Assembly (NCBI GenBank): GCA_037133055.1
Contig: JBAXOY010000007.1
Span: 1 to 45,886, forward strand
Direction of reading: 5' to 3'
DNA: 45,886 nucleotides
Source of the DNA: Chlamydiota bacterium
GTDB taxonomy: Bacteria > Auribacterota > Tritonobacteria > UBA1439
Made by a program: the position numbers and the translations under genes. Position 1 is the stretch's first letter, and every line of letters starts with the position of its first letter. This document shows, piece by piece, positions 10,327 through 35,761 of the stretch. The notes under the pieces are model-generated. The model had not been told where the DNA came from, did not search any database, and was given only the letters and a program-made list of their open reading frames with translations.

Positions 10327-10332
10327 GCACCA

Positions 10333-10361
10333 AACATATCACGATGTGTGCACTTTGGCAA
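10333..10361 (-). promoter_or_regulatory. sigma70-type promoter of TA cassette 1 (probably leaderless)
   Basis: TTGCCA-17 nt-TATGTT-6 nt-ATG. Confidence 0.65.
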
Positions 10362-10388
10362 CAATTTCTTTTCGGCTCCTTTCTTGAC

Positions 10389-10453
10389 GAAGAACGTCAC
10401 GGTTCAGGCTGAGGCGCGCCTTGGCGCCGATAGGTTGCAACCGGTTGTTGGGC
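10389..10453 (-). other. attC site (65 bp)
   Basis: Minus strand GCCCAAC aaccggttgcaacct...agcctgaaccgtgac GTTCTTC, downstream of the Imm5-like gene. Confidence 0.8.
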
Positions 10454-10478
10454 AGTCGCAGTGGTCCGAGAGAGCCGG

Positions 10479-11006: not shown

Positions 11007-11019
11007 TTGCGCTCCTTTT

Positions 11020-11083
11020 GCCTAACGCCAAGTTCATCTGCAAGTTGCGTAGCAAATTGTCAGTCTGAAACTTGATGTTAGGC
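11020..11083 (-). other. attC site (64 bp)
   Basis: Perfect GCCTAAC...GTTAGGC ends; the upstream gene's TAA stop lies inside the inverse core site GCCTAAC, a classic cassette feature. Confidence 0.92.
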
Positions 11084-11635
11084 GTTTTCCGGCAAGGTCC
11101 GAGCACGGATGCCCGCGTCCAACTCATAGAGGATCGTGTTCAACCGACTGTTACCCGCTTGACGAGCGGGCATCTGTAGCAAGACTTCGCGCACTTCAGA
11201 AGTGACGTGTTCGATTGCCCAACGAACCTCACCATCACCGATGCTTGGATCGCCGACGTGGTAGAGCTCAAGCGCCAGCGCGGCATAGGCCGCTGGACCG
11301 AGAATGTGCTTCGTTTGGTGGACATCCGCCAATGGATGCGTGTAGGCGCTCGCCGCTGCAAGGCCCGCGGCGCGAGCGGATGCTGCTGCGGCGGGATCGT
11401 CTGCCTCACGTGCAGCGGAATACGCCGACCAGGCAAGGGAACGCAACTGAGCGCTTCGCTTTCCCCCACCAGCAAACACCCGAATGCCCTCAATCGCGGC
11501 ACGAGGCCGGGAATCTGAATCAGCATGAGTCTCATAGACCGACAGCGCCCTCTCAGCGCAGTCCGCAGCCCAACTCCCCAAGGCCCTAAGTGACTCCAGA
11601 GTCAGCGTGAAATACTTGGACTCACGCGCCATCAT
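11078..11635 (-). CDS. Imm5-like putative immunity protein, paralog of 10479-11006
   Basis: LGSWAADCAERAL...DSRPRAAIEG...ARAAGLAAASAY...HILGPAAYA; GGAGG RBS. Confidence 0.72.
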   Translation of the reverse strand: MMARESKYFTLTLESLRALGSWAADCAERALSVYETHADSDSRPRAAIEGIRVFAGGGKRSAQLRSLAWSAYSAAREADDPAAAASARAAGLAAASAYTHPLADVHQTKHILGPAAYAALALELYHVGDPSIGDGEVRWAIEHVTSEVREVLLQMPARQAGNSRLNTILYELDAGIRARTLPENA

Positions 11636-11673
11636 TCACCTCCATAAATTTTTCAAAATCATGTGATGCCATA

Positions 11674-11793
11674 AATGTATCGCAGAGGGAATAGATGACC
11701 TGCGGAGATTCTAATTACAAAGCAAGCTATCCAGTTTCTTGGGGGGCGGGTCAAATGGTCTTGCCATGCTCTAATTACTGACCCTGGTGGTTT
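11674..11793. repeat. Direct repeat, copy 1 (102 bp ungapped plus a 15-bp tail), shared with 13628-13779
   Basis: AATGTATCGCAGAGGGAATAGATGACC...CATGCTCTAAT; 5 mismatches in 102 bp by hand count; TGACCCTGGTGGTTT follows in both copies. Confidence 0.92.
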
Positions 11794-11810
11794 GACTGAT
11801 GGTTTGCCTG

Positions 11811-11939
11811 GGCCAACGGCCAGATGAGCTGCGACCCGGAGTGGCGCGGGTCATGCCTTGTATGAACCGTGACGCGAGGGGTTGTCAGCGTTTGTCCGCC
11901 CGCCGCGGGCGGGCAATACGTTCCGCCCTGTTGTTCGAC
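11811..11939 (-). other. attC site (129 bp, branched variable region)
   Basis: Minus strand GTCGAAC...GTTGGCC; the distal ~75 bp are closely similar to the attC at 9651. Confidence 0.78.
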
Positions 11940-12229
11940 CACGATTCCGTTCTCTGAGTTCTTCGCTCTGCTTTGATGCCCCATGCCAGGTAGAGTTTGG
12001 CAAGGCTCTGGTAGGGAACATCACGTTTGTTGGCGAGAACCTTGAGCTCATCCAGCATGTCTTCCGGCAATCGGATCGAGATAGATTTCAGAGATGGACG
12101 AAGATTGGAAAACGATGCCCGCGTTGCGGCGGATATATCAAAGTAGTCAAGGGGGGAGTGTGACGCCCAAAACTCTCTTTCTTCATCCTCCGTCCGGAAG
12201 GTCGGTTTAGTCTTTAGCCGCGTGCTCAT
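11885..12229 (-). CDS. BrnA/CopG-like antitoxin; reading frame runs into the attC
   Basis: FRTEDEEREFWASH...NLRPSLKSISIRLP...ANKRDVPYQSL. Confidence 0.85.
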   Translation of the reverse strand: MSTRLKTKPTFRTEDEEREFWASHSPLDYFDISAATRASFSNLRPSLKSISIRLPEDMLDELKVLANKRDVPYQSLAKLYLAWGIKAERRTQRTESWSNNRAERIARPRRADKR

Positions 12230-12509
12230 AGAATTGCCGCTCCTTTCTACTCATGTCTCGAGCCGAAATCACCCGAAGCAAACCCGCTCGTTGCGTGTAG
12301 ACGACAACCAGCGGTCGTCCTTGATCTGTCTGGCCAAAGGCCGCACACCGCTCTTCGGCGACGGTGTGCTTCGGGTCATCGAGAATCATCAGCGGTTGAT
12401 TGAAAAAGACTTGCTCACACTCGGATGCCAGAACCCGGCGTTTCAGGTTCTTGTCCCTATTACCATCATCCCAGTCAAACCCCGTGAACTCTGGGTAATC
12501 ACGTGTCAT
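12207..12509 (-). CDS. BrnT family toxin (start 12509 or 12515)
   Basis: GFDWDDGNRDKNL...ECEQVFFN...DPKH...EER...G.T..GR.L.VVYT.R...RVISARDMSRKER. Confidence 0.9.
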   Translation of the reverse strand: MTRDYPEFTGFDWDDGNRDKNLKRRVLASECEQVFFNQPLMILDDPKHTVAEERCAAFGQTDQGRPLVVVYTQRAGLLRVISARDMSRKERQFYEHAAKD

Positions 12510-12515
12510 AGGCAT

Positions 12516-12544
12516 ACGGTATATCTACACAATATACATGTCAA
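12516..12544 (-). promoter_or_regulatory. sigma70-type promoter of TA cassette 2 (probably leaderless)
   Basis: TTGACA-17 nt-TACCGT-6 nt-ATG(12509). Confidence 0.65.
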
Positions 12545-12569
12545 CTTATTCTTTTAGGTGCATCTGCTG

Positions 12570-12695
12570 GCCGAACGTCCAAGCTCAGCGACCGCCGCTG
12601 GAAACGCCCGGGCGGTTGCAACAATCGCGAGCAAATTCTCCCAAACCGTCCGACTGCCCAGCGGGGCAGCGGTTCGCTGCAGCGCCTTGTTAGGC
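12570..12695 (-). other. attC site (126 bp)
   Basis: Minus strand GCCTAAC aaggcgCTGCAGCGaaccg...cggtCGCTGAGCttggac GTTCGGC, with the typical L''/L' extra-base asymmetry. Confidence 0.9.
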
Positions 12696-12777
12696 GCTTT
12701 GGTGCGGTATGAATAGCAAGCCAAATCCAATGAGGCATAAAGGCTGAGGCAAACAATGGCAGATACAGGGCGAGTCG

Positions 12778-13050
12778 TTATCCGGCCTTTATTTTTAAAT
12801 CTCCTTCGACATATCGATGAATTAAGCCGGAAATAAGCGTTTGATAAGGAACACCCATTTCCATTGCCTTTTTCTGGATACCGATGAGATCGTGATCATA
12901 AAGGCGGATGGTTATACGTCTGTCCTTTCTGAAGGTGGTATCGGCTGCCGTCTTGATTGCTTTGATTTCTTCTTTGGATGGCGTAGAAAGCTTCATCTTG
13001 CCACTTTCCAAGGAATCAAGGATATATTTTTCTTCCTTGCTAAGTTTCAT
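12778..13050 (-). CDS. Antitoxin, CopG/RHH-like; paralog of 9776-10048
   Basis: MKLSKEEKYILDSLESG...RKDRRITIRL...GVPYQTLISGLIHRY. Confidence 0.85.
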   Translation of the reverse strand: MKLSKEEKYILDSLESGKMKLSTPSKEEIKAIKTAADTTFRKDRRITIRLYDHDLIGIQKKAMEMGVPYQTLISGLIHRYVEGDLKIKAG

Positions 13051-13330
13051 TTTGGGTCTCCTGTTCTTCTAAGAATAGATGTGTTGCTTTCCTGCTGGGG
13101 ATAATTGTCTTCAGAAATATATGATCCTTTTCAATAATGTGCGGCACCAGGTATATGTACTTTTCAATGATGACAAAATATATCTTCTGCCTGGGATACC
13201 TCATTTGGTCAGGGTGATCAGCGATCCTCCATACATCCCCCCGAGATAAATGAAATATCACCCGCTCAAATGATATATTTCTCTCCTTTTTCAGCCATTT
13301 ATTCTTGTCCGGATTCCATTCGTATCTCAT
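13040..13330 (-). CDS. BrnT-like toxin; paralog of 10045-10326 (start revised to 13330)
   Basis: MRYEWNPDKNKWLKKERNISFERV...HPDQ...LVP...FLKTIIPSRK. Confidence 0.85.
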   Translation of the reverse strand: MRYEWNPDKNKWLKKERNISFERVIFHLSRGDVWRIADHPDQMRYPRQKIYFVIIEKYIYLVPHIIEKDHIFLKTIIPSRKATHLFLEEQETQNET

Positions 13331-13336
13331 TGTCAG

Positions 13337-13365
13337 ATTGTACATCTATTGTCTGTACATTGCAA
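13337..13365 (-). promoter_or_regulatory. sigma70-type promoter of TA cassette 3, with two TGTACA palindromes (likely antitoxin operator)
   Basis: TTGCAA-17 nt-TACAAT-6 nt-ATG; TGTACA occurs twice within the promoter. Confidence 0.7.
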
Positions 13366-13515
13366 TGGTGAATTACCTTGTTCTTCTATCTACACCGGAT
13401 AACTTGGTATCTTACGCAAATTCCCTTTTGCCGGGGGACATGATTGCCCTACGATCTCACCGCCAGGTTGTGCACATCCATGAATGGAATCCCACACGAA
13501 TAGTAATACTTGTCG

Positions 13516-13646
13516 CGTTCATATGGCATCCGAAAGTCCGAAGATGGACTTTTCGGGGAGTAGCTTCAGTGGGTTTGGCCTGCTCGGTTATGCGGCCATT
13601 CTAATAAAAAACGCGGACGGATGCTTCAATGTATCGCAGAGGGAAT
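13516..13646 (-). pseudogene. Degenerate duplicate of the miaB 5' end and upstream region
   Basis: Translates to TPRKVHLRTFGCHMN versus MiaB IPRKVHLRTYGCQMN; ungapped alignment to 9486-9616 at offset 4030; the start codon position is ATA. Confidence 0.85.
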
Positions 13647-13779
13647 AGATGACCTGCGGAGATTCTAACGACAAGGCAAGCTATCCAGTTTTTTGGGGGG
13701 CGGGTCAAATGGTCTTGTCATGCTCTAATCATCAACTATGCGCCTCTTAGTGTATAGTTAAGGGTGACCCTGGTGGTTT
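13628..13779. repeat. Direct repeat, copy 2, carrying an extra hairpin-containing segment (13730-13764)
   Basis: Matches 11674-11793; the extra segment contains AACTATGCGC-CTCTTA-GTGTATAGTT. Confidence 0.92.
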
Positions 13780-18798: not shown

Positions 18799-19983
18799 AT
18801 GAAACCGCTCGAGGGGGTCAGGGTTCTCGACTTCACGCGCGTGCTCGCCGGCCCGTTCTGCACCATGACCCTCGGCGACATGGGCGCGGAGGTGGTCAAG
18901 GTCGAGCAGCCGGTGAAGGGAGACGACACCCGGGCGTTCGGCCCCCCGTTCGACCGAGGGGAGAGCGCCTATTTCCTGAGCGTCAACCGCAGCAAAAAGA
19001 GCATCACGCTCGACCTCAAGGCCGAGGCGGGCCGCGAGGTCGTCCGCCGCCTCATCGCCCGGTCTGACGTGCTCGTCGAGAACTTTCGCCCCGGCACACT
19101 GGGAAAACTCGGCTTCGACTACGACTCCGCCGCGAAGCTGAACCCGCGCCTCGTCTACGCCTCAATCTCCGGATTCGGCCAGACCGGGCCATGGGCGGCC
19201 AAGCCCGGGTACGACCTTGCGCTGCAGGGGCTCGGGGGGATCATGAGCCTCACGGGCGACCCCACGGGCCCGCCGTCCAAGGTGGGCGTCTCCCAGGCGG
19301 ACCTCGTCGCGGGCCTCTACGCCGTGCAGGGGATACTCCTCGCGCTCTACGCGCGCGAAAGGACCGGACGCGGTCAGCGTGTGGATGTGGCGATGCTCGA
19401 CGGCCAGCTCTCGCTCCTCACCTATCAGGCGGGCATCTTCTTCATGACCGGCGCCCCCCCGGGGCGGATCGGCAACCGGCACCCCACCATCTGCCCCTAC
19501 GAGACTTTCAAGGCGAGCGACCGCTATATCAACATCGCGGTGGGCAACGACAAGCTCTGGAAGACCTTCTGCGGGCTCCTCGAACTCGGGGCGCTGTGCG
19601 ACCACCCCGACTACGCAACAAATCCCGCGCGCGTCGAGAACCGGGACAGCCTCTTCCCCATCATCCAGGAGGTGATCCAGGAGCTCGACAGCGCCCACTG
19701 GCTCGCAGTCTTCGAGAAGCACGGGATCCCCTCGGGGCCGATACTGTCCGTGCGGGAAGCCCTCGCGCACCCGCAGGCCGCGGCGCGGGACATGGTGGTG
19801 ACCGTCCCCCACGGCACCCTCGGCCCCGTCAAACAGACGGGGATACCGGTGAAGCTGTCCGAGACCCCGGGGGCGGTCGAGAGCGCCCCTCCGCGCCTCG
19901 GCGAGCACACCGATGAGGTGCTCGCCTCGCTGGGTTTCTCGGGCGCGGAGATTCAGGCGATGCGCGCGAGCGGCGCGATCTGA
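18799..19983 (+). CDS. CoA-transferase family III (CaiB/BaiF)
   Basis: PLEGVRVLDFTRVLAGPFC, NRSKKSITLDLK, ENFRPG, catalytic Asp in ADLVAG, APPRLGEHT. Confidence 0.93.
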   Translation: MKPLEGVRVLDFTRVLAGPFCTMTLGDMGAEVVKVEQPVKGDDTRAFGPPFDRGESAYFLSVNRSKKSITLDLKAEAGREVVRRLIARSDVLVENFRPGTLGKLGFDYDSAAKLNPRLVYASISGFGQTGPWAAKPGYDLALQGLGGIMSLTGDPTGPPSKVGVSQADLVAGLYAVQGILLALYARERTGRGQRVDVAMLDGQLSLLTYQAGIFFMTGAPPGRIGNRHPTICPYETFKASDRYINIAVGNDKLWKTFCGLLELGALCDHPDYATNPARVENRDSLFPIIQEVIQELDSAHWLAVFEKHGIPSGPILSVREALAHPQAAARDMVVTVPHGTLGPVKQTGIPVKLSETPGAVESAPPRLGEHTDEVLASLGFSGAEIQAMRASGAI

Positions 19984-20115
19984 ATGTCACCACGGAGGCG
20001 CGGAGAGACGGCCGTGTGGGCGTAAGAGCGTGAGAGCCCGAACTTTTCCCTCCGTGCTCCCTGCCGGCAGGCAGGTCCGCGCCCCCTGGTGAAATTTTCT
20101 TCCGAGGGGAAGGCC

Positions 20116-21780
<1,665 letters not shown>

Positions 21781-21795
21781 AATAAGGAACCATCC

Positions 21796-22188
21796 ATGAG
21801 CAGGACGATCAGAGTCCTCATCGCCAAACCCGGCCTCGACGGCCACGACCGCGGCGCAATCGTGGTGGCGCACGCGCTGCGCGAGGCGGGGATGGAGGTC
21901 ATCTACACCGGGATACGGCAGACGCCCGAACAGATCGCGCACGCGGCGGTCCAGGAGGATGTCCGGGCGGTGGGACTGAGCTGCCTTTCCGGGGCGCACG
22001 CGAAGCTCTTCCCGAAGGTCGTCGCACTGCTCAGGGAGAAGGGGGGCGATGACATCCTGATTTTCGGCGGCGGGATCATTCCGGAGGAGGATATCCCGGC
22101 GCTCAAGAAGGCCGGGATCGCGGAGATATTCGGGCCCGGGACGCGGACCTCCGCAATCGTCGAGTTCATCCAAAAGAGCGTATGCTGA
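21796..22188 (+). CDS. Methylmalonyl-CoA mutase, cobalamin-binding (small) subunit
   Basis: [10 protein letters not shown] (DxHxxG), [19 protein letters not shown]. Confidence 0.94.
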
Positions 22189-22222
22189 AATCGTTTTCCC
22201 CATTTCCCAGGACCGCCGAGCC

Positions 22223-23161
22223 ATGGGGCTTGCCCAAAAGATATTCGCCCACGACACCCGCGCCGCGAGCCGGCTCCTGAGCTGGATCGAGGACGGAGAC
22301 TCGAGGGCCTCCGGAGAGCTTCGGGAGATCTTCCCCCGCACCGGCGCCGCCTACCTGCTGGGTATCACCGGCGCCCCCGGCGCGGGGAAGAGCACGCTCA
22401 CGGACCTGCTCATCTCCCTCTACCGATCGCGCGGCCTCATCGTCGGGGTCCTCGCCGTGGACCCGTCGAGCCCGTTCACCGGCGGGGCAGTCCTCGGCGA
22501 CCGCGTCCGGATGCAGCGCCACGCGACCGATGCCGGCGTCTTCATCCGCAGCATGGCGAGCCGAAGTTGGCCGGGGGGGCTTAGCCGGGCTGCGACGGAG
22601 GCCGTCAGGGTGCTCGAGGCGTGGGGGTGCGGGCTCGTGATCATCGAAACCGTGGGCGTTGGACAGAACGAGGTCGAGGTGTCGAGGCTTGCCTGCACCA
22701 CGGTCCTCGTCTGCGCCCCGGGCGCGGGGGACAGGGTCCAGGCGATCAAGGCGGGGGTGACGGAGATTGCCGATGTCATCGCCCTCAACAAGGCGGATCT
22801 CGCGGACGTCGAGCATGCCGCCAGTGCCCTCGAGATGACGCTCGCGCTGCACCCGCGCGGGGAATGGCGCCCCCCCCTGGTCAGGACGATCGCCCGGGAC
22901 GGCATGGGGGTGGAGGAGCTCGCGGGGGCCATCGATGCCCACCGCCGTTTCATCGAGGGAAACGGCACGCTCGCGGAGAAAAAGAGGGAGGGACTCAAGG
23001 ACCATCTGAAGGAGATCATCCGCAGGAAATTGCACGAGAGGATATCAGGCCGTCTCCCCTCCGACGGCGAGCTCCGATCCCGCGTCGCGGAGATCCAGCA
23101 AGGCCTCGCCGATCCGTACACCGTCGCGGAAGAGATCGCCGCAAAGGAGATTATGCCATGA
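22223..23161 (+). CDS. meaB: MeaB/ArgK G-protein chaperone of the mutase
   Basis: GITGAPGAGKST, AVDPSSPFTGGAVLGDRVRM, ETVGVGQ, NKAD. Confidence 0.93.
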   Translation: MGLAQKIFAHDTRAASRLLSWIEDGDSRASGELREIFPRTGAAYLLGITGAPGAGKSTLTDLLISLYRSRGLIVGVLAVDPSSPFTGGAVLGDRVRMQRHATDAGVFIRSMASRSWPGGLSRAATEAVRVLEAWGCGLVIIETVGVGQNEVEVSRLACTTVLVCAPGAGDRVQAIKAGVTEIADVIALNKADLADVEHAASALEMTLALHPRGEWRPPLVRTIARDGMGVEELAGAIDAHRRFIEGNGTLAEKKREGLKDHLKEIIRRKLHERISGRLPSDGELRSRVAEIQQGLADPYTVAEEIAAKEIMP

Positions 23162-27618: not shown

Positions 27619-28119
27619 CTATTTCGTATTGATGTAGCGAATTGCTTCGTCTATTACAGAAATATCCTTTATCTTGGAAGAGAAAATTTCGTCTTTGATT
27701 TTTTCCACCTCATCTACGCTTTCAACAATAAAATCTGAAAAAGTAAAAATAAACGGGTGAATCCAATCTTCAATCACTTTTCCATGAAAGGCTACATTAG
27801 AACGCCTATGATGAGTTTCTTTGGGAAGGACGGAAATGACGGGCTTCCTGAAATACTTTGCAATGACGAGTTCTTGAGCGGTTCCTGCCCCAAGTCTTTC
27901 TTCGGCGTTAATTATCACTGCTGCGCTTTCCTTTATGTGCCTGCAGTCCTGGCCGACCACTGCCAAATAATCACCTTCATCCAATTCCTTGTGATAGGGC
28001 TCGATAAAATCCGCATCAAAAAATTTCTGCAGAGATTGAATATATCTGCTCCTCCAGTCGTCAAATTTTTTTGCTTCCTCGTCCCCCTTGGGAACACTGC
28101 CTGCTAAATAGATTTTCAT
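27619..28119 (-). CDS. Low-GC nucleoside 2-deoxyribosyltransferase-like protein
   Basis: KIYLAGS...W...D.RHIKES.AVII...GAGTAQELVIAKYF.KPVI; AT-rich codon usage unlike its neighbours. Confidence 0.65.
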   Translation of the reverse strand: MKIYLAGSVPKGDEEAKKFDDWRSRYIQSLQKFFDADFIEPYHKELDEGDYLAVVGQDCRHIKESAAVIINAEERLGAGTAQELVIAKYFRKPVISVLPKETHHRRSNVAFHGKVIEDWIHPFIFTFSDFIVESVDEVEKIKDEIFSSKIKDISVIDEAIRYINTK

Positions 28120-28233: not shown

Positions 28234-28258
28234 TCCATGGACCATGGACGATCGACTA
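28234..28258 (-). repeat. Heptamer repeat TAGTCGATCGTCCATGGTCCATGGA overlapping the argF stop; near-identical to 37581-37604
   Basis: Direct comparison of the two sites. Confidence 0.75.
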
Positions 28259-29188
28259 TTCGCGCATCAGCAGGGACATGATGCCCTTCTGGACGTGCAG
28301 GCGGTTCTCCGCCTGGTCGAAGATGATCGAGGCGGGGCCGTCGAGGACCTCGTCGGTCGCCTCCTCGCCGCGGTGGGCCGGGAGGCAGTGCATGACCATC
28401 GCCCCCTTCTTCGCCTTTGACATGAGGCGCGCGTTAAGCTGGAACGGGGCAAAGACCCTGAGGCGCTCCTCCCGCTCCTTCTCCTGCCCCATGCTCGCCC
28501 AGACGTCGGTGTAGATGATGTCGGCGCCGGCGACCGCCTTCGCGGGGTCTCGCTCGATCGCGATCTTCGCCCCCGCCTTCTCCGACGCGGCCCAGATCCC
28601 CTTGTCCGGCTCGTAGCCCGAGGGCGGGCAAATCGTGAAGGAGAAGTCGAGCTTCGCGGCGGCCTCGACCCAGGAGTTCGCGACGTTGTTGCCGTCCCCG
28701 ATGAAGACGATCCGGACACCCTTCATTTTGGGCTTCGCGGGGTCGAGCTTCAGGTGCTCCGCGACCGTGTAGATATCGCCGAGGATCTGGCAGGGGTGGC
28801 TTAAGTCCGTGAGGCCGTTGATCACGGGGATCGAGGCGTGTCGCGCGAGGTCCACCACGTCCTGGTGCCGGAAGGTGCGGATCATGATCCCGTTCAGGTA
28901 GCGGGAGAGCGTCTTGGCGGTGTCGGCGATCGTCTCGCCGCGGCCGAGCTGGAGGTCGCCCGCGCCCATGTAGAGAGGGTATCCGCCGAGCTGGACCATC
29001 CCGACCTCGAACGACACGCGCGTGCGCGTCGACGGCTTGTGGAAGATCATGCCGAGGGTCTTTCCGGCGAGCACCGGCGTCGGCGTCCCCTTCTTCAACG
29101 CGTCCTTCAGCCGCTTCGTCTCGGCGAAAATCTCGTGGATCTCGTCCCGCGAGATATCCGATATATTGACCAGGTCCTTTACCTTCAT
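28256..29188 (-). CDS. argF: Ornithine carbamoyltransferase (canonical)
   Basis: KPSTRTRVSF, HPCQ, DGNNVANS, TDVWASMG, HCLPAHRG, QAENRLH. Confidence 0.92.
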   Translation of the reverse strand: MKVKDLVNISDISRDEIHEIFAETKRLKDALKKGTPTPVLAGKTLGMIFHKPSTRTRVSFEVGMVQLGGYPLYMGAGDLQLGRGETIADTAKTLSRYLNGIMIRTFRHQDVVDLARHASIPVINGLTDLSHPCQILGDIYTVAEHLKLDPAKPKMKGVRIVFIGDGNNVANSWVEAAAKLDFSFTICPPSGYEPDKGIWAASEKAGAKIAIERDPAKAVAGADIIYTDVWASMGQEKEREERLRVFAPFQLNARLMSKAKKGAMVMHCLPAHRGEEATDEVLDGPASIIFDQAENRLHVQKGIMSLLMRE

Positions 29189-29207
29189 TCTTTCCTCCAG
29201 CTAGTAT

Positions 29208-30446
29208 TCACGCTATCCCGGCGGCGGAGACGGCCTTCTTCAGGCTCGATAGCTCCGGCTCGATCGAGATCGTCTTCCCGGCGATCTTCATGGCCGTGTC
29301 CACATCCTTGAGCCCGTTCCCGGTGACCAGGCAGACGATACGCTCGGAACCGCTGATCGTCCCCTCTCGCGCAAGTTTTTTCAGCCCCGCGATGCTCGTG
29401 GCGCCCGCGGGCTCGGCGAAGACGCCGCAGGCCCGGGCGAGGAGCGGTATCGCCTTGAGGATCTCCTCGTCGCGCACCGTCACCGCGAGCCCCTTCGACT
29501 CGCGCACCGCCCGCACCGCCATGTCGCCGTCGCGCGGCAGGTCCACCGAGATGCTGTCGGCGACCGTGGTCGCCTTGACGGGCCTGATCACGCCGTCGCC
29601 GTTCACCGCGTCCGCGATCGCGCTGCTCTTCGCGGACTGCACGGCGACAAGCCGGGGCAGCCGGTCGATGAGCCCCACGGCGTACAGGTCGCGGAACCCC
29701 TTCCAGACTCCGCTGATGATGTTGCCGTCGCCGACAGGCACGAGGACAAGGTCCGGCGGATCCCAGTTCAGCTGCTCGCAGATCTCGAAGGAGCAGCTTT
29801 TCTTCCCTTCGCGGGTGTACGGGTTGTAACCGGTGTTGCGGTTGTACCAGCCGTACTCGGCGGTCGCCTCGAGGCAGAGGTCGAACGCCTCGTCGTACGT
29901 CCCCTTCACGGCGAAAACTTTCGCGCCGAAGATGAGGAGCTGGGCGATCTTGGCCTTCGGGGCGGTCTCGGGGACGAAGATGATTGGGCTCAGGCCGATG
30001 CTCGCGCAGAGGCACGCGGTCGAGGAGGCCGCGTTGCCGGTCGAGGCGCCGCATATCTTGTCGAAGCCGAGCTCGACCGCCTTCGCGACCGCGACGGAGC
30101 TCGCCCGGTCCTTGTACGAGGCGCTCGGGTTCCTGCCGTCGTCTTTCACCCAGAGTTTTTCCACTCCGAGGGTTTTTGCGAGCGTATCCGTGCGGTAGAG
30201 GGGGGACCAGCCGATCTGGAGCGGCATCACCGCCCCGCGGTCCTTCAGCGGGTACAGGTCCCAGTAGCGCCAGACCGAGAAGTCGTTGTTCTCCGCGAGC
30301 GACTCGCGCGTGAGCGTATTCCTGATCGCCGCGTAGTCATAGATAACGTCGAGGTTCTTCCCGCAGGCGTCGCAGACGTAGGTCATGCCGCGCGCGCCGA
30401 ACTCTTTTCCGCACCCCGTGCACTTCAACCCCAGAACGTGGCTCAT
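29208..30446 (-). CDS. Threonine synthase-like fold-type II PLP enzyme
   Basis: N-terminal CxxC..CxxC, NPSASYKDR, ASTGNAA, PVGDGNI, EPAGA, TGNGLKD. Confidence 0.85.
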   Translation of the reverse strand: MSHVLGLKCTGCGKEFGARGMTYVCDACGKNLDVIYDYAAIRNTLTRESLAENNDFSVWRYWDLYPLKDRGAVMPLQIGWSPLYRTDTLAKTLGVEKLWVKDDGRNPSASYKDRASSVAVAKAVELGFDKICGASTGNAASSTACLCASIGLSPIIFVPETAPKAKIAQLLIFGAKVFAVKGTYDEAFDLCLEATAEYGWYNRNTGYNPYTREGKKSCSFEICEQLNWDPPDLVLVPVGDGNIISGVWKGFRDLYAVGLIDRLPRLVAVQSAKSSAIADAVNGDGVIRPVKATTVADSISVDLPRDGDMAVRAVRESKGLAVTVRDEEILKAIPLLARACGVFAEPAGATSIAGLKKLAREGTISGSERIVCLVTGNGLKDVDTAMKIAGKTISIEPELSSLKKAVSAAGIA

Positions 30447-30464
30447 GTTTCTCCTCTAAAGAAT

Positions 30465-30504
30465 TCGAGGGTTGAGGGTATGATCTTCGGCCCTCAACCC
30501 TCGA
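30465..30504. repeat. 14-bp perfect inverted repeat built from GAGGGTT heptamers
   Basis: TCGAGGGTTGAGGG...CCCTCAACCCTCGA between arcC and the threonine synthase-like gene. Confidence 0.8.
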
Positions 30505-30574
30505 TGGTCACTCGTGCCTCTTCAACCCGGATGCAGGGGGGCATGAAGGCCGCCCTGCACGAAAAGGGCCGGGA

Positions 30575-31546
30575 CTATTCCTTCACCGGGTCCGGGACGA
30601 TGCGCGTGCCGGCCTTGCCGATGAGGGCATCGATCGCCTTGTCGAGGCTCGTGATGATGGCGCAGTCGCCGCCCCACTCGATGAAGCGGATGCAGGCGAG
30701 CACCTTCGGCCCCATGCTCCCGGCCTTGAAGTGTCCCTCCTTGTGCAGCTTCTTCATCTCGGAGAGCGTCACCGTCCGGACCGCCTTCTCCTGCGGCGTG
30801 CCGAAGTTGATCTTCGCCGCCTCGACGTCCGTGAGGACGAGGAAGATGTCGGCGCCCACGACCTCCGCCAGCCGCTCGCCGGCCTTGTCCTTGTCGATGA
30901 CCGCCGCGGTGCCGCGCAGGTTGTCGTTCTTGTCGTACACCACCGGCACGCCCCCCCCGCCGGAGGCGATGACGACGATCCCGGAGTCCACCATGCGGCG
31001 GATCGCGACGTACTCGATGTTGCGGATCGGGTCGGGGGAGGCCACCACGCGGCGGAACCTCTTCACCACGCTCTTCGGCTTGACCTCCTTGATGACGTAG
31101 TCGGGCCGCTCCTTCCTGATCTTCGCGGCCTCCTCCTCCGTGTAGAAGGGGCCGACCGGCTTCGACGGGTCCTGGTAGTCAGGGTCGTCCTCGCTGACGA
31201 GCACCTGGTTCACGATCGAGACGACGGGCAGCGGCAGCTTCTCCTTCCAGAGCATGTTCTGCATCGTCTGTTGGAACATGTAGCCGATCTGGCCCTGGGT
31301 CATCGCGCCGACGATGTCGAGCGGCTGGGCCGGCACCTCGGCGAGGGCGCCCTCCTGCTGGAGAAGAAGGTTGCCCGCCTGGGGGCCGTTCCCGTGCGTG
31401 ATGACGAGCCGGTGGCCGAACTTGAGCATGCCCACCAGCTGGGCGCTGGTGATCTCGACGTTCCTGAACTGCTCCGCGGCCGTGCCCTTCTCGTCCGCCT
31501 GCTTGATCGCGTTACCGCCCAGCGCGACAACGATGATCTTCCTCAT
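30575..31546 (-). CDS. arcC: Carbamate kinase
   Basis: VALGGNA, THGNGPQAG, AMTQGQIGY, PSKPVGPFY, RRVVASP, GGGGVPV, AVIDKD, GSMGPK. Confidence 0.95.
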   Translation of the reverse strand: MRKIIVVALGGNAIKQADEKGTAAEQFRNVEITSAQLVGMLKFGHRLVITHGNGPQAGNLLLQQEGALAEVPAQPLDIVGAMTQGQIGYMFQQTMQNMLWKEKLPLPVVSIVNQVLVSEDDPDYQDPSKPVGPFYTEEEAAKIRKERPDYVIKEVKPKSVVKRFRRVVASPDPIRNIEYVAIRRMVDSGIVVIASGGGGVPVVYDKNDNLRGTAAVIDKDKAGERLAEVVGADIFLVLTDVEAAKINFGTPQEKAVRTVTLSEMKKLHKEGHFKAGSMGPKVLACIRFIEWGGDCAIITSLDKAIDALIGKAGTRIVPDPVKE

Positions 31547-31551
31547 TGCCT

Positions 31552-31857
31552 CTACGCCTCCCTGTTGTTTCTCCTCAAAGCCCCGTCATTTCCAGGTTCT
31601 TTCCCGCAGCGGCGCGGCTCCCCGCCGCGCCGCCTGTGCCCGATCGCCCAGTGCGCGAACGCAAGGACGCCCGAGGTCGCCACGAAGCTCGCGATCTGCA
31701 CCGGACGGGGGTATTTCAGCAACGCCTCGACCAGGGCGACCAGCGCGGCGATGCCGAGCACAAAGAGCGAGGACCCCATCCGCATCCACGCCCCCATCAT
31801 CAGGAGGGCGGTGACGAGGGCCCATGGCATCCAGGGCTGCACCGTGTACGGGTCCAT
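31552..31857 (-). CDS. Small hydrophobic membrane protein (about 3 TM segments)
   Basis: Fills the gap between co-oriented genes; hydrophobic; purine-rich RBS-like sequence upstream. Confidence 0.55.
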   Translation of the reverse strand: MDPYTVQPWMPWALVTALLMMGAWMRMGSSLFVLGIAALVALVEALLKYPRPVQIASFVATSGVLAFAHWAIGHRRRGGEPRRCGKEPGNDGALRRNNREA

Positions 31858-31890
31858 TCCGTCAGCCTTCCTCCCGTTCCGCCGGAGCGA

Positions 31891-32907
31891 TCAGAGCTTC
31901 GCCATCGTGAGCGCCATGATCGCCTTCTGGACGTGCAGGCGGTTCTCCGCCACGTCGTAGATAATCGAGCGGGGGCCGCTCGCCACCTCGTCCGTCACCT
32001 CGTGCCCGCGATCGATGGGCATCGGGTGCGTGTAGAGCGCGGCGCGGGTGAGCTTCATCTTCGGCGCGTCGCAGATCCAGTCCGTGTACTTCAGCGCCCT
32101 GTCGACCTCGCCCTGCTTGTTGAACTCGCCCGAGTCGTAGGCGTGCGAGGTCATCCAGTTACGGGAGTAGACCACGTCCGCGCCCCGGTAGCCCGCCCGC
32201 ACGTCGTGGGTGATCTCGAACTTCGCCTTGTTTCTCTCGCAGTTCTCCTTCACCATCTCGATCACGTCGGGGTCCAGGTCATACCCCTCCGGGTAGGCGA
32301 GCGTCACGTCCATGCCGTAGCGGGAGCAGATGAGGATGCTCTCCTGCACCGAGCACCACGAGCGGGAAAGGGCCCCGTGACCCCACACCTGGAGGAGCTT
32401 CTTCCCCTTCAGGTTCTTGCCGATGTGCCTCCTGAGGCCCATCATGTCCGCAAGGCCCTGGCACGGGTGGAACTTGTCGTGCGCCATGCTGATGACCGGG
32501 ATATCGCCCCACTTCGCGTACTCCTCAAGAAGCTCGTGCCCCTCGCCGTACCGGCTCACCTTGTCCTCGAGTATCCGGATCCCGAGGCCGACGGCGTAGC
32601 GGCTCATGACCTTCGCGGCGTCCTCGACGGTCTCGCCGGCGCTCTTGGAGGTCTTGAGGCGCATCGACTTCGGCTCAAGGAACTGGGCGTGCCCGCCGAG
32701 CTCCGTGGCGGCGCACTCGAAGCTCTGGCGCGTGCGGACGGAGGGGTTGTAGAAAAACATGAAGAAGGTCTTGTTGAGCAGGAGGCGGGTGAACTTCTTG
32801 TCGAAGCGCTTCTTTTGCATCTCCTCCGCGAGCTCGAGCACCTTCGTGAGCTCTTTCAGATCCCAATCCTGCGTGCACAGCAGGTCTCTTCCGGTCAGGT
32901 TTGCCAT
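31891..32907 (-). CDS. Transcarbamylase of unknown substrate (knotted AOTC/YgeW-like clade; start revised to 32907)
   Basis: NPSVRTRQSF, HPCQ, VWGHGALSRSW loop, VYSRNW, HPMP instead of HCLP, AENRLH; GAGGAG RBS. Confidence 0.85.
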   Translation of the reverse strand: MANLTGRDLLCTQDWDLKELTKVLELAEEMQKKRFDKKFTRLLLNKTFFMFFYNPSVRTRQSFECAATELGGHAQFLEPKSMRLKTSKSAGETVEDAAKVMSRYAVGLGIRILEDKVSRYGEGHELLEEYAKWGDIPVISMAHDKFHPCQGLADMMGLRRHIGKNLKGKKLLQVWGHGALSRSWCSVQESILICSRYGMDVTLAYPEGYDLDPDVIEMVKENCERNKAKFEITHDVRAGYRGADVVYSRNWMTSHAYDSGEFNKQGEVDRALKYTDWICDAPKMKLTRAALYTHPMPIDRGHEVTDEVASGPRSIIYDVAENRLHVQKAIMALTMAKL

Positions 32908-32978
32908 ACTCTCCTCTATCGCTCCTCTCTCTGGTGCGTCCCCGCGGGCGCGCACCGCGCGCGCCCCGTGAAGGCGCA

Positions 32979-33007
32979 GGTGGCAGGCGCGCACGGCGCC
33001 TGCCACC
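32979..33007. repeat. GC-rich 12-bp perfect hairpin between the two unusual transcarbamylase genes
   Basis: GGTGGCAGGCGC-GCACG-GCGCCTGCCACC; no U-tract. Confidence 0.7.
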
Positions 33008-33032
33008 CGTGATGACTCCCTTCGGCGGCCCC

Positions 33033-34043
33033 TTACATCGTCAGCGACATGATCGCCTTCTGAACGTGCAGGCGGTTCTCCGCCTCATCGTTCACGATGG
33101 AGATCTTCGGGTCGTCGATCAGCTCGTTCGTCACTTCCTTCTCGCGCTTCGCGGGCAGGCAGTGCATGTAGACCGCGTTGGAATTGGCGTCCTTGAAATG
33201 CTTGTGGGAGATGCACCAGTCCTTCGCGTACTGCGGCCCCTTCTCGGCGTGCACGTCCGGCTTGCGCGCCCAGCTCTTGCAGTAGATGACATCCGCGCCC
33301 TTGCAGGCCTTCCAGATGTCGTGCTCGACGGTGATCTTCCCGCCGGAGGCCTTCGCCGTGTCCTGCGCGAACTTGAGGTACGCGGGATCGATGTCATAGC
33401 AGCCCGCCTCGTCCGGGTAGGCGAGGACGATGTTCATCCCGAGGATGCCGCCGGCGGCGACCATCGTCTGCGGAACGCCGGCCGATTTCGCCCTGTCGTC
33501 CCAGGCCCATCCCATGACGATCTTCCTCTGCCTGTACTCCTCGCCGAACTTCTCGCGCATCGTCATGATGTCCGCCATGATCTGGCAGGGGTGCTCCATG
33601 TCGTCGAGCATGTTGAAGACCGGGATCGAGGCATCCTTCGCGATCGCCCTGAGCACCTCGCGCGCGTCGCCGTAGTCGTACTTGTCGGCGCCCATCTGCG
33701 CCTTCAGGTTGTAAAGCCGGATGGCGAACCCGTCGATGAAGCGGCTGATCATCTCCGCGGTGTCCTTCCACGACTCCTTGTTCTTCAGCTGCAGCTGCTC
33801 CGGGCTGTAGTACTGCGCGTGCCCGCCGAGTTGCGTCATGCCGGTCTCGAAGGAGATGCGCGTCCGGGTCGAGGGCGACGCAAACAGCATCCCGAGGGTC
33901 TTCCCCTTGAGGACTTCGTGCGGCTCGCCGATGGCCCATTTCATCTTGAGGTACTTGGCCACATCGAAGATCGTCTCCAGCTCTTCGCGGCTGTAATCCA
34001 TGATGCTGATAAAATCCTTACCCCTCATCTTGCGGGTAATCAT
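33033..34043 (-). CDS. Transcarbamylase of unknown substrate (YgeW/AOTC-like)
   Basis: SPSTRTRISF, HPCQ, GWAWDDRAKSAGVPQ, IYCKSW, HCLP; lacks DGNN and SMG. Confidence 0.87.
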   Translation of the reverse strand: MITRKMRGKDFISIMDYSREELETIFDVAKYLKMKWAIGEPHEVLKGKTLGMLFASPSTRTRISFETGMTQLGGHAQYYSPEQLQLKNKESWKDTAEMISRFIDGFAIRLYNLKAQMGADKYDYGDAREVLRAIAKDASIPVFNMLDDMEHPCQIMADIMTMREKFGEEYRQRKIVMGWAWDDRAKSAGVPQTMVAAGGILGMNIVLAYPDEAGCYDIDPAYLKFAQDTAKASGGKITVEHDIWKACKGADVIYCKSWARKPDVHAEKGPQYAKDWCISHKHFKDANSNAVYMHCLPAKREKEVTNELIDDPKISIVNDEAENRLHVQKAIMSLTM

Positions 34044-34107
34044 GCGTACTCCCCCCTTTCGCGGGGCCAGGGCGCCTCACCCTTCCCCATCAGTTACAGA
34101 GCGTGGC

Positions 34108-34136
34108 AGTATAGGGGACGCGGGGCCCCATGTCAA
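34108..34136 (-). promoter_or_regulatory. Near-consensus sigma70 promoter of the transcarbamylase operon
   Basis: TTGACA-17 nt-TATACT on the minus strand. Confidence 0.75.
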
Positions 34137-34276
34137 TGAAAATCCCGAAAATCCAGAAATCGCACAAAATCGCCATCGCTCTTTACTTCCCGCCTTCCTC
34201 TTTGCTATCGTGTTCTCCCTCGCTCTCCCGGTGGGAGCGGGCATGGAGCGCAGACACCACCACACGGAGGCGGACG

Positions 34277-35761
34277 ATGATCGGCATGATAGACCTGAAG
34301 GTCGACAACAAGAAACTCGAGAAGGCGGTGCAGCGGTGCCGCGAGCGGAACATCATCATCCCGACCTTCAAAGAGCAGAAAAACCCCGCGCTCGTCCCTG
34401 AGAAGATCCAGCAGCGACTGAAGAAGATAGGCCTCTGGGACTTCGACTCCACCAATCTCTTCAGGATCACCTGGAAGAACGAGCCCGTTCCGAAGGGCGG
34501 CCTTTACGACGGCGTGAACTACCTCGAGCTCCCGAAGGAGCTTACCGGGACAGACGCGCGCATCATCTGCCTCGTCGGCAAGTGGTTCCCCACCGGGGCG
34601 CACAAGGTCGGCGCGAGCTTCGGCTGCCTTGTCCCGCGCCTCGTGACGGGCCAGTTCGACCCGACCACCCAGAAGGCGGTCTGGCCCTCCACCGGGAACT
34701 ACTGCCGCGGCGGCGCGTACGACTCGCACCTCCTCGCCTGCCAATCGATCGCCATTCTCCCCGAGGGGATGAGCCGGGAGCGTTTCGAGTGGCTGAAGCA
34801 GGTCGCCGGCGAGGTAATCGCCACGCCCGGCTCCGAATCGAACGTCAAGGAGATCTATGACAAGTGCTGGGAGCTCCGGAAGACCCGCAAGGACAACATC
34901 GTCATCTTCAACCAGTTCGATGAGTTCGGCAACCATCTCTGGCACTACGAGATCACCGGCCACGCCATGGAGGATGTCCTCAAGAAGGAGATGAAGAAGG
35001 GCGACCGGTACGCGGGCGTAGTCCTCACGACCGGCTCGGCGGGCACCATCGGCTGCGGCGACTACCTGAAGAAGGTCTTCCCGACCAGCAAGATCGCCGC
35101 GGGCGAGGCGTGGCAGTGCCCGACGCTGCTCCTGAACGGCTTCGGGGCGCACCGCATCGAGGGGATCGGCGACAAGCACGTCCCGTGGATCCACGACGTG
35201 AGGAACACGGACATGGTGATCGCCGCCGACGACGAGAACTGCGTGAACATCATCCGTCTCTTCAACGAGCCGGCGGGGCGGAAATATCTCCAGAAGCAGG
35301 GCGTCCCGAAGGCCCTCACCGACCGCCTCGACCTGATCGGCATCTCGGGTGTGGGGAACATCCTCTGCGCCATCAAGTTCTCCAAGTACTACGAGCTTAC
35401 CGATAAGGACATCGTCCTCACGGTGCTCACGGACTCCATGGAGCTCTACGGGAGCCGCCTCAAGGAATACCGGGACACGTACGGGGCGTACACGGAGCTC
35501 GATGCCGCCCGCGACTACCACCGCCACATCATGGCGCTCGCGACGGACAGGATGATGGAGCTCAGCTTCTACGACCGGAAGCGCGTCCACAACCTGAAAT
35601 ACTACACCTGGATCGAACAGCAGGGCAGGGAGCTCAAGGAGCTGAACGCCCAGTGGTACGACTACCCCGGCTACTGGGACAGGATCCACGGTCAGGCGGA
35701 CGAGATCGACGCGCTGATCAACGAGTTCAACGATCGGACAGGGCTCCTCAAGAAGCTCTGA
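34277..35761 (+). CDS. Fold-type II PLP-dependent enzyme (TrpB/CysK/DAP ammonia-lyase superfamily) of unknown substrate (start revised to 34277)
   Basis: FPTGAHKVG (PLP Lys), PSTGNY, TGSAGT, HRIEGIG; GGAGG RBS. Confidence 0.85.
   Translation: MIGMIDLKVDNKKLEKAVQRCRERNIIIPTFKEQKNPALVPEKIQQRLKKIGLWDFDSTNLFRITWKNEPVPKGGLYDGVNYLELPKELTGTDARIICLVGKWFPTGAHKVGASFGCLVPRLVTGQFDPTTQKAVWPSTGNYCRGGAYDSHLLACQSIAILPEGMSRERFEWLKQVAGEVIATPGSESNVKEIYDKCWELRKTRKDNIVIFNQFDEFGNHLWHYEITGHAMEDVLKKEMKKGDRYAGVVLTTGSAGTIGCGDYLKKVFPTSKIAAGEAWQCPTLLLNGFGAHRIEGIGDKHVPWIHDVRNTDMVIAADDENCVNIIRLFNEPAGRKYLQKQGVPKALTDRLDLIGISGVGNILCAIKFSKYYELTDKDIVLTVLTDSMELYGSRLKEYRDTYGAYTELDAARDYHRHIMALATDRMMELSFYDRKRVHNLKYYTWIEQQGRELKELNAQWYDYPGYWDRIHGQADEIDALINEFNDRTGLLKKL

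Follow-up and report, generated by a model that had tools for sequence, protein, structure and literature searches.

The DNA analyzed here, a contig of 45,886 nucleotides (nt) that is referred to as the window (JBAXOY010000007.1, positions 1 to 45,886 of the forward strand; GenBank assembly GCA_037133055.1), comes from a genome deposited as Chlamydiota bacterium and assigned by GTDB to the Auribacterota (Tritonobacteria; UBA1439). It has a G+C content of ∼65% and carries a cluster of seven genes that probably, as judged from comparisons of sequence and gene content, represents the lower part of a variant reductive urate (2,8-dioxopurine) pathway, in which ureides are split. Six of the genes are open reading frames (ORFs) on the minus strand between 28256 and 34043, with a third-position G+C content (GC3) that is high, as in real genes. 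In order from the 5′ end they encode a carbamoyltransferase of 336 residues, termed TCA (33033-34043), with two OTCace domains and a YgeW-like acceptor pocket; a second carbamoyltransferase of 338 residues, termed TCB (31891-32907), also with two OTCace domains and belonging to a distinct and very conserved family; a small hydrophobic protein of 101 residues with two to three likely membrane helices (31552-31857; GC3 0.88); a carbamate kinase (30575-31546) that scores 399.1 with TIGR00746, vs. an equivalog cut-off of 358; an enzyme of the pyridoxal 5′-phosphate (PLP)-dependent type that resembles threonine synthase (ThrC-like; 29208-30446), with a PALP domain, a match to TIGR00260 and an N-terminal four-cysteine ribbon; and ArgF, a canonical ornithine carbamoyltransferase (OTC; 28256-29188). 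The seventh gene is divergent (plus strand, 34277-35761) and encodes a CysK/TrpB-like fold-type II PLP enzyme of 494 residues (CysK-like), which is below the cut-off for cysK.

A predicted sigma-70-like promoter site (TTGACA-17-TATACT; 34136..34108, minus strand), which matches the consensus at 11 of 12 positions, is located 65 nt upstream of the TCA start, and the 8.8-kb region as a whole has five promoter-like sites vs. 1.0 ± 1.0 in shuffled sequence. An earlier interpretation of this region, made without database searches and referred to herein as the sequence-only reading, had described this promoter motif and a six-gene minus-strand run with a divergent PLP gene, and the motif and all seven genes were found in place. 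Only the start of the divergent gene had to be moved: it is most likely 34277 and not 34130, because the 34130 reading overlaps the promoter, the sequence GGAGG is found 6 nt 5′ of the ATG at 34277, and homologs of the CysK-like enzyme align from residues 1-12 of the 34277 start. The 101-residue ORF has no family matches in Pfam or NCBIfam, and it is found between TCB and the carbamate kinase only in the four loci closest to the window (L004, 75%; L005, L006, and L010, 50-52%).

According to curated NCBIfam models, ArgF is an OTC (NF001986, 430 vs. cut-off of 306; TIGR00658, 396 vs. 281), and it contains the DGNN, SMG, and HCLP motifs. TCA and TCB are below all NCBIfam cut-offs for OTC, acetylornithine carbamoyltransferase (AOTC), putrescine carbamoyltransferase, aspartate carbamoyltransferase (ATCase), and YgeW. 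The best match of TCA is to OTC (268 vs. 306 and 263 vs. 281), for which TCB scores 218 and 206, and the best NCBIfam family for TCB is AOTC (NF003384, cut-off 288), with scores of 234.7 for TCB and 230.7 for TCA. The YgeW models TIGR03316 and NF005538 (cut-offs 500 and 453) give 127.5 and 135.8 for TCA and 118.7 and 128.2 for TCB, and all three enzymes, ArgF included, fall far short of the cut-off of the putrescine carbamoyltransferase model. The DGNN and SMG motifs had been said to be confined to ArgF, and they are indeed absent from both TCA and TCB. The motifs of TCA are STRTR, HPCQ, HCLP, WAWDDRAKSAGVPQ, and YCKSW, while in TCB the STRTR motif is replaced by SVRTR and HCLP by HPMP, and these are invariant in 81/81 sequences.

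The two enzymes also differ in what is predicted to line the acceptor pocket. Residues around the second-substrate site of YgeW, including K203 and K270, are named in a review of these enzymes (Shi et al.; PMC4581275). The equivalents of these two residues are Lys in all seven members of the clade to which TCA belongs and in 45/45 sequences of TCX, a large partner family of TCB found in other genomes (348- and 358-residue forms, near or under the acetylornithine cut-off); they are Arg in 81/81 TCB sequences and Asp in ArgF. TCB also has Arg at the position equivalent to Q98 of YgeW and therefore has Arg at positions 98, 203, and 270. Of the two pocket lysines and the loop with the sequence WAYSPSxxKPxxVPQ in YgeW, TCX keeps both lysines and the proline-rich sequence, TCA keeps VPQ and both lysines with loss of the prolines, and TCB has no proline and has Arg at both lysine positions. 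TCA is, on these criteria, an OTC-derived enzyme with a YgeW-like pocket, in the position that TCX takes elsewhere, and the predicted acceptor pocket of TCB is different from that of the TCA/YgeW type. In a FastTree phylogeny rooted on Escherichia coli PyrB, TCB forms a long-stemmed clade (support 100) beside which TCX, E. coli YgeW, and a single atypical sequence are grouped, the position of YgeW being weakly supported. The seven-member TCA clade, which includes the window gene, branches beside this TCX/TCB/YgeW group, and its basal members pass the OTC cut-offs. An AlphaFold model of TCB (pLDDT 94.6) has as its nearest structure the acetylornithine carbamoyltransferase of Xanthomonas (TM 0.88-0.90, 33-34% identity).

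Relatives of TCB number 161 in a species-level genome collection, and the 80 that were kept for comparison are 63-87% identical to the window TCB, with 79 of the 80 loci being records of metagenome-assembled genomes (MAGs). They are found in the Auribacterota, Elusimicrobiota, Caldisericota, Myxococcota, Chloroflexota, Vulcanimicrobiota, Atribacterota, Hodarchaeota, and other phyla, and at least 1235 protein clusters match TCB at E ≤ 1e-100. Those that are named are labeled ornithine or N-acetylornithine carbamoyltransferase, the nearest being from Candidatus Aureabacteria. Carbamate kinase lies 3′ of TCB in about 56 of the 80 loci and a second carbamoyltransferase lies directly upstream of it in about 55, in many phyla, and the arrangement is therefore not due to chance. 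A ThrC-like gene follows the kinase in 26/80 loci (30 by a looser count), a CysK-like gene is present in 13/80, and ArgF is at the end of the operon in 12/80. TCB is also unusually constrained, because the carbamate kinases of the same loci are only 33-63% identical to that of the window, except for those of the four closest (L004-L006 and L010; 87-94%). Other conserved neighbors are an M20 peptidase (12 loci), two groups of amidohydrolases, and a GntR/UTRA regulator. Genes like those for SsnA, YgeY, or HyuA are located within 10 kb of TCB in 15/80 loci, and three loci (L061, L069, and L072) share one operon with the order SsnA-M20-X-TCX-TCB-carbamate kinase-ThrC-like-ArgF.

Some features of these neighborhoods are recorded here as observations in their own right. 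ORF X of the shared operon, between the M20 peptidase and TCX, encodes 326-405 residues (L061:2952-3932, L069:5027-6010, L072:7548-8765) and has no Pfam match at E ≤ 1e-12, and downstream of ArgF all three loci have an unassigned ORF of ∼220 residues and a gene of the histone deacetylase family (acetylpolyamine amidohydrolase-like). In the Chloroflexota loci L027, L049, L050, and L051 a gene for a 181-residue protein with a flavin reductase domain is located between TCX and TCB (e.g., L051:9416-9961).

The co-occurrence of TCB with the genes of purine breakdown was assessed in 50 TCB genomes and 14 controls and in a sample of 201 Chloroflexota genomes; the resulting tallies are uncorrected for shared ancestry and come from genomes that are incomplete MAGs, including three flagged as unpublished (G194, G222, and G087). 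SsnA (TIGR03314) was found at E ≤ 1e-60 in 49/50 TCB genomes and was over the curated cut-off in 32/50, vs. 1/14 controls, which was E. coli. In the Chloroflexota, SsnA is present in 7/7 TCB genomes vs. 35/194 genomes without TCB (Fisher p = 1e-5, phylogeny ignored). Together with the SsnA operon in L061, L069, and L072 and the 15 loci with such genes near TCB, which is where the sequence-only reading had advised looking for ssnA, hyuA, and ygeY, this agrees with the relationship that it drew to the ygeW/ygeX/yqeA purine cluster of E. coli. A partner of the YgeW type is present in 47/50 TCB genomes (TCX in 44, TCA in two, and true YgeW alone in one) and was not seen in three (G001, G020, and G021), so that TCB appears to be additional to the YgeW-type enzyme rather than a replacement for it. 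True YgeW is encoded in 5/50 TCB genomes, adjoining YgeY every time, and YgeY itself is present in 26/50. The proposal that two non-ornithine carbamoyltransferases act on a di-ureido intermediate thus gains comparative support from the partner in 47/50 genomes and from the different pockets, but its suggestion of a heteromer does not: a co-evolved TCA-TCB heteromer is argued against by the fact that the conserved TCB pairs with three partner families (TCX, TCA, and YgeW).

The two PLP enzymes have a similar distribution. The ThrC-like enzyme exceeds the cut-offs for threonine synthase (TIGR00260, 214 vs. 167; NF006050, 310 vs. 303), and its K112, C9, C12, and C25 are invariant in its alignment, while the CysK-like enzyme is well below the cysteine synthase model TIGR01139 (82.3 vs. 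351) and has an invariant K110 in the sequence PTGxHKVGA and an invariant PSTGNY loop. Both retain the PLP lysine and the substrate-carboxylate loops. With the YgeX model NF006058 (cut-off 276) the ThrC-like enzyme gives 32-45 bits and the CysK-like enzyme gives no match. Of the 50 TCB genomes, one has YgeX, 46 have the ThrC-like enzyme, and 43 have the CysK-like enzyme, and SsnA directly adjoins one gene of the PLP pair in four genomes (G013, G028, G045, and G032). An independent sample was obtained via the CysK-like enzyme, with at least 597 loci of which 80 were kept. These contain a ThrC-like gene (50 loci), carbamate kinase (27), a carbamoyltransferase (27), HyuA-like (24), xanthine dehydrogenase (XDH; 18), SsnA-like (13), and YgeY-like (13) genes, and YgeX was found in 0/80. 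At least one pathway gene is present in 54/80 of these loci and in 44/56 of those of at least 12 kb, and one locus (L133) has a canonical YgeW (69% identical to that of E. coli)/YgeY/SsnA/XdhD/YgfK cluster that contains the PLP pair and is without YgeX. The window genome has a second, canonical ThrC on another contig (C68), and the cluster gene is an extra paralog. That the PLP enzymes might deaminate the product of the carbamoyltransferases, as the sequence-only reading had it, is in agreement with these comparisons, where YgeX is absent from 49/50 genomes and the pair is found inside urate-type clusters. A prediction of a complex between the ThrC-like and CysK-like enzymes gave a score of 0.00, which is no answer either way on binding, and the sequences NPYTREGKK and NSLRVEGQK were discarded as a diagnostic of ThrC-like enzymes and ThrC, respectively, since T211 and R212 are not conserved across the ThrC-like alignment.

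The loci of the CysK-like enzyme also contain other carbamoyltransferases. Those of the Anaerolineae have the order pseudo-ATCase, 326-residue carbamoyltransferase, kinase, ThrC-like, CysK-like, hydantoinase, and because a pseudo-ATCase is used there in place of TCB, a second carbamoyltransferase appears to have been recruited more than once. The ATCase-like genes in L131, L140, L150, L182, and L199 (and L081:7360-8310) score 250-263 vs. a TIGR00670 cut-off of 237, while genuine PyrB scores 313-379. These genes are upstream of one for a 326-residue carbamoyltransferase and of those for carbamate kinase and the two PLP enzymes (ThrC-like and CysK-like), and they may encode pseudo-ATCases, comparable to the UGTCase of Rubrobacter, that serve as the second ureide enzyme. 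A reading of the gene in L081, from the Atribacterota, as an anabolic tap was withdrawn, as its score of 263 is under that of genuine PyrB. In the Bipolaricaulota/Thermotogae, four loci (L129, L130, L139, and L167) have a TCX that is 59-62% identical to the TCX of L028 and, near carbamate kinase and a CysK-like gene, a further carbamoyltransferase that is 42-45% identical to TCB and may represent yet another partner family. Of the 80 CysK-like loci, just one (L192; NZ_JAHLPX010000001.1) is from a named isolate, Anaerotignum sp. MSJ-24; its CysK-like and ThrC-like genes are side by side, and other pathway queries were unmatched within 8 kb. L129 is likewise without a MAG tag.

The window genome, which is 92% complete, encodes candidates for the steps upstream of the cluster on other contigs. 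On contig C19, SsnA is over its cut-offs (516 vs. 455.5; NF005540, 538 vs. 444) and adjoins a fused GltD and PreA-like reductase, truncated where the contig ends, and the same contig has the Mo and FAD subunits of an XDH-like enzyme and an adenine deaminase next to YgeY. With scores of 650-676, the Mo subunit of the XDH-like enzyme falls short of the cut-offs (780-1102). YgeY is encoded twice (C19 and C1; 427 and 410 vs. 321.5), and the sole hydantoinase over its cut-off is a D-hydantoinase on contig C28 (449 vs. 393). The operon that contains the latter (C28:11200-16700; L115:6219-11669) consists of PreT-like, PreA-like (DHO_dh and 4Fe-4S), D-hydantoinase, and class III aminotransferase genes and has no β-ureidopropionase. 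Either it serves reductive pyrimidine breakdown, with the resulting ureide being split by enzymes encoded elsewhere, or it belongs to the urate route as a part of the UacX/HyuA type. YgeX, YgeW, PyrB, CarB, and arginine deiminase were not found in this genome, nor was an orotidine 5′-monophosphate (OMP) decarboxylase over the cut-off.

The absence of CarB from the genes found raises the issue of how carbamoyl phosphate is supplied. ArgF is the only consumer of carbamoyl phosphate found in the window genome, it is in the same operon as all of the carbamoyl phosphate-producing enzymes that were found, and ArgG is present. Because CarB was not found, ArgF probably draws its carbamoyl phosphate from this module, which is in agreement with the earlier suggestion that it taps this intermediate for arginine synthesis. 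CarB is present in 7/50 TCB genomes vs. 14/14 controls, and in the Chloroflexota it is present in 165/201 genomes, with all seven TCB genomes being among the 36 that lack it; SsnA is found in 30/36 of these CarB-less genomes vs. 12/165 of those with CarB. The idea that TCB or TCA might be a missing ATCase was dropped, as OMP decarboxylase was not found either and the de novo pyrimidine route seems to be wholly absent from the window genome. A normal PyrB is present in 26/51 TCB genomes, and because about half of them still have this enzyme, their source of carbamoyl phosphate may be carbamate kinase or the phosphorolysis of ureides.

The reductive route for urate breakdown was solved in 2025, when it was reported that urate is converted to 2,8-dioxopurine and that ring opening by SsnA and HyuA yields 2,3-diureidopropionate, one ureido group of which is split with phosphate by YgeW and the other hydrolyzed by YgeY, and that YgeX converts the resulting diaminopropionate to pyruvate (Li et al., PMC12507026; Liu et al., bioRxiv 10.1101/2025.04.24.650524; commentary, PMC12990295). 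YgeW and YqeA were reported to make ATP from 2,3-diureidopropionate (bioRxiv 10.1101/2025.04.24.650524), and the two studies are in dispute as to the order in which the two ureido groups are cleaved and by what mode (PMC12507026; bioRxiv 10.1101/2025.04.24.650524). The sequence-only reading had called the pathway of the window undescribed, and in this respect it is superseded, as the backbone of the pathway is that published in 2025. In the neighborhood maps of Li et al., a PF00185 domain sufficed for a protein to be counted as YgeW and a PF00291 domain for it to be counted as YgeX (PMC12507026), so that the variant is included in these maps yet unrecognized. A separate description of the variant was not found in the literature covered, nor was any publication that joins ssnA, a carbamoyltransferase, and threonine synthase, the supplements of the preprint being outside that coverage.

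Our interpretation is that the cluster probably constitutes the lower part of such a pathway in a variant form. The XDH-like enzyme, the fused GltD/PreA-like reductase, SsnA, and the hydantoinase, all encoded on other contigs, would produce 2,3-diureidopropionate from urate or from other purines. TCA, in the role of YgeW, would split one ureido group with phosphate to give carbamoyl phosphate, and TCB, with its predicted arginine-lined pocket, would split the second one in the same way, where in E. coli it is hydrolyzed by YgeY. Carbamate kinase would convert each carbamoyl phosphate to ATP, with up to two ATP per purine ring, and part of the carbamoyl phosphate would be diverted to citrulline by ArgF. 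The ThrC-like and CysK-like enzymes would jointly replace YgeX in converting 2,3-diaminopropionate, or its mono-ureido form, to pyruvate and ammonia. Gene content, family assignments, motifs, co-occurrence, and neighborhoods were observed directly; every substrate, which of the cleavages comes first, how much ATP is formed, and that the two PLP enzymes act jointly are what we infer in this scheme.

Several observations weigh against this interpretation. In the window the cluster is flanked by housekeeping genes and is not linked to the upstream genes. YgeY persists in the TCB genomes, as described above, with two copies in the window genome, and the M20 peptidase gene is directly upstream of TCX-TCB in 12 loci. 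For these reasons TCB does not simply take the place of YgeY, and the two ureido groups have three candidate enzymes between them. The one hydantoinase that exceeds its cut-off is in an operon (preT-preA-hydantoinase-aminotransferase) that resembles one for pyrimidine catabolism, neither the XDH-like nor the YgfK-like protein reaches the curated cut-offs of its E. coli counterpart, the ThrC-like enzyme passes NCBI threonine synthase models, and the co-occurrence counts carry the limits of ancestry and genome completeness already given.

Much of this could also be explained if the cluster were a general hub for ureide phosphorolysis, in which one of the carbamoyltransferases serves the ureide of another route and the two do not act sequentially. 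Candidates for this ureide are N-carbamoyl-β-alanine from reductive pyrimidine breakdown or a ureidomethyl-hydantoin before its ring is opened. The lack of β-ureidopropionase in the C28 operon fits this explanation, as does the fact that many genomes with TCX and TCB retain YgeY. TCB has partners from different families (TCX, TCA, and YgeW), and in other clusters it is a pseudo-ATCase and not TCB that accompanies a YgeW-like enzyme; moreover, the Rubrobacter UGTCase, a pseudo-ATCase, is reported to split allantoate (PMC4016543). It is nevertheless an unlikely explanation, since TCB is restricted to SsnA genomes in the Chloroflexota sample (7/7) and the operons of L061, L069, and L072 contain SsnA and have neither PreTA nor dihydropyrimidinase.

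Considerably less probable is an anabolic carbamoyl phosphate operon in which the kinase operates as a synthase, the carbamoyltransferases make citrulline-type or other carbamoylated products, and threonine and cysteine synthesis is the ordinary function of the two PLP enzymes. This would account for the lack of CarB in the genes found in this genome and in 43/50 TCB genomes, and for the position of all seven Chloroflexota TCB genomes among the 36/201 without CarB. ArgF is, in addition, a conserved member of the operon, the ThrC-like enzyme passes the ThrC models, and public annotation labels TCB as an ornithine or N-acetylornithine carbamoyltransferase. On the other hand, TCA and TCB miss the OTC, AOTC, and ATCase cut-offs and lack the ornithine motifs, arginine synthesis is already covered by ArgF, and no ATCase is needed, as OMP decarboxylase and PyrB were not found. 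There is a second, canonical ThrC in the genome, the CysK-like enzyme scores 82 vs. 351 for cysK, and the genes with which the module is associated are those for SsnA, hydantoinase, XDH, and YgeY.

It is very improbable that the cluster is for fermentation of arginine or citrulline of the arginine deiminase type, or for agmatine catabolism, with spare paralogs, even though an OTC-family enzyme and an adjacent carbamate kinase form the classic ArcB-ArcC pair and ArgF could run backwards. Arginine deiminase was not found anywhere in the genome, as the sequence-only reading had said of its own stretch, and the presence of ArgG points to arginine synthesis, while none of the three carbamoyltransferases comes near the cut-off for putrescine carbamoyltransferase. 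No agmatine deiminase or antiporter is present among the ORFs of the window, in agreement with the same reading, a genome-wide search for either not having been made. In the viomycin and zwittermicin systems CysK-like enzymes make diaminopropionate and are combined with an OTC-like carbamoyltransferase. The production of a ureido amino acid such as β-ureidoalanine for a secondary metabolite, for which OTC-family diaminopropionate carbamoyltransferases would be a precedent (PMC4581275), is hardly credible here, as there are no nonribosomal peptide synthetase, polyketide synthase, or tailoring genes in the window or in the examined loci, and the module is spread across many phyla of anaerobes together with carbamate kinase and SsnA-type genes.

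Outside of the cluster, the window has a few other features. Just downstream of ArgF, a 166-residue ORF (27619-28119, minus strand) has a weak match to nucleoside 2-deoxyribosyltransferase (22.7 bits vs. a cut-off of 28.8) and was not found in the related loci. The region 9700-13650 is a low-GC island (0.50-0.58 vs. 0.65-0.69 elsewhere) with two weak BrnT toxin/CopG antitoxin-like ORF pairs (10045-10326 with 9776-10048, and 13040-13345 with 12778-13050) and a strong CopG_antitoxin ORF (11885-12229; 90.6 bits), and is probably an inserted toxin-antitoxin gene cluster. The genes at 18799-23161 (plus strand), for a family III CoA-transferase, the large subunit of methylmalonyl-CoA mutase, a B12-binding subunit, and MeaB, are a propionate/succinate-type module.

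The 2025 route has been solved only for gut bacteria with YgeW, YgeY, and YgeX, and the variant would extend it to environmental anaerobes of the Auribacterota, Elusimicrobiota, Caldisericota, Chloroflexota, Myxococcota, Vulcanimicrobiota, and Atribacterota and to Asgard archaea. Its key enzymes are publicly mislabeled as ornithine or acetylornithine carbamoyltransferase, threonine synthase, and cysteine synthase, and for this reason the purine fermentation genes of MAGs would be assigned to amino acid synthesis in metabolic reconstructions. Two distinct carbamoyltransferases would also provide a natural system in which the disputed order of ureido cleavage can be tested. A more far-reaching form of the proposal is that, in many uncultured anaerobes, TCB, a carbamoyltransferase family not recognized before, acts by phosphorolysis, in place of hydrolysis, on the second ureido group, with a yield of two ATP, the PLP pair is a new lyase, and the module is the only source of carbamoyl phosphate, and this we regard as tentative and on balance doubtful. 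If it were true, the substrate-level ATP from anaerobic urate breakdown would be two and not one, which, with both cleavages phosphorolytic, doubles the energy yield of anaerobic purine fermentation at this step; the ThrC-like/CysK-like pair would act as a diaminopropionate (or albizziin) lyase with a novel type of chemistry; and purine breakdown would feed arginine synthesis directly via the ArgF of the operon. The apparent loss of carbamoyl phosphate synthetase in the carriers suggests that their arginine synthesis depends on carbamate kinase and purine ureides, a dependence that has so far gone unrecognized.

How the cluster compares with known systems is seen most directly with the ygeW-ygeX-ygeY-hyuA-yqeA and ygfK-ssnA-ygfM-xdhD clusters of E. 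coli. Common to both are a carbamoyltransferase followed by carbamate kinase and a terminal step assigned to fold-type II PLP enzymes, and the window genome also has SsnA, YgeY, and a hydantoinase, with TCA retaining K203 and K270. Unlike the E. coli clusters, that of the window has no YgeW ortholog, two carbamoyltransferases instead of one, and ArgF in the operon, YgeX is replaced by the ThrC-like and CysK-like enzymes, and the module is unlinked from the upstream genes, among which the role of YgfK is probably taken by the fused GltD/PreA-like protein. YgeW itself (YTCase; PDB 3Q98 and 2YFK), the type of which has a trefoil knot, is, like TCA and TCB, a carbamoyltransferase beside carbamate kinase, in its case catabolic; its WAY..K..VPQ loop and Y(P/A/C)K(S/A)W motif are common to TCA and TCX, and in the tree it groups, with weak support, with TCX and TCB and not with OTC. 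It is, however, longer (396 residues vs. 336-338), with extra terminal helices and a long 240's insert that TCA and TCB, judged by length only, appear to lack, and TCB differs further in having Arg at positions 98, 203, and 270 and an equivalent loop that is free of proline.

The best structural match of the TCB model, the acetylornithine carbamoyltransferase of Xanthomonas campestris (PDB 3KZM and related structures), is at 33-34% identity a distant one, and TCB scores 235 vs. the cut-off of 288, is in the context of carbamate kinase and SsnA rather than arg genes, and is encoded in a genome that has a normal ArgF. Specificity residues of acetylornithine carbamoyltransferase are Glu92, Asn185, and Lys302 in the X. 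campestris numbering (PMC4581275). The ureidoglycine carbamoyltransferase (UGTCase) of Rubrobacter xylanophilus (Rxyl_2847), reported to be an allantoate phosphorolysis enzyme beside carbamate kinase, provides a precedent for the use of phosphate in splitting a di-ureido acid (Barba et al., 2013; PMC4016543). This enzyme belongs to the oxidative (allantoin) route and is a pseudo-ATCase (PMC4016543), unlike TCA and TCB, which are OTC/AOTC-like; pseudo-ATCases do adjoin the same PLP pair in Anaerolineae loci. Finally, the pair itself shares with threonine synthase (e.g., Aquifex, 2ZSJ) and CysK the fold-type II architecture, the PLP lysine, and the carboxylate loops. The ThrC-like gene differs from that of threonine synthase in being an extra paralog that travels with purine-ureide genes, and the CysK-like enzyme, with its 494 residues, differs from CysK in having added N- and C-terminal parts and in traveling with these same genes.

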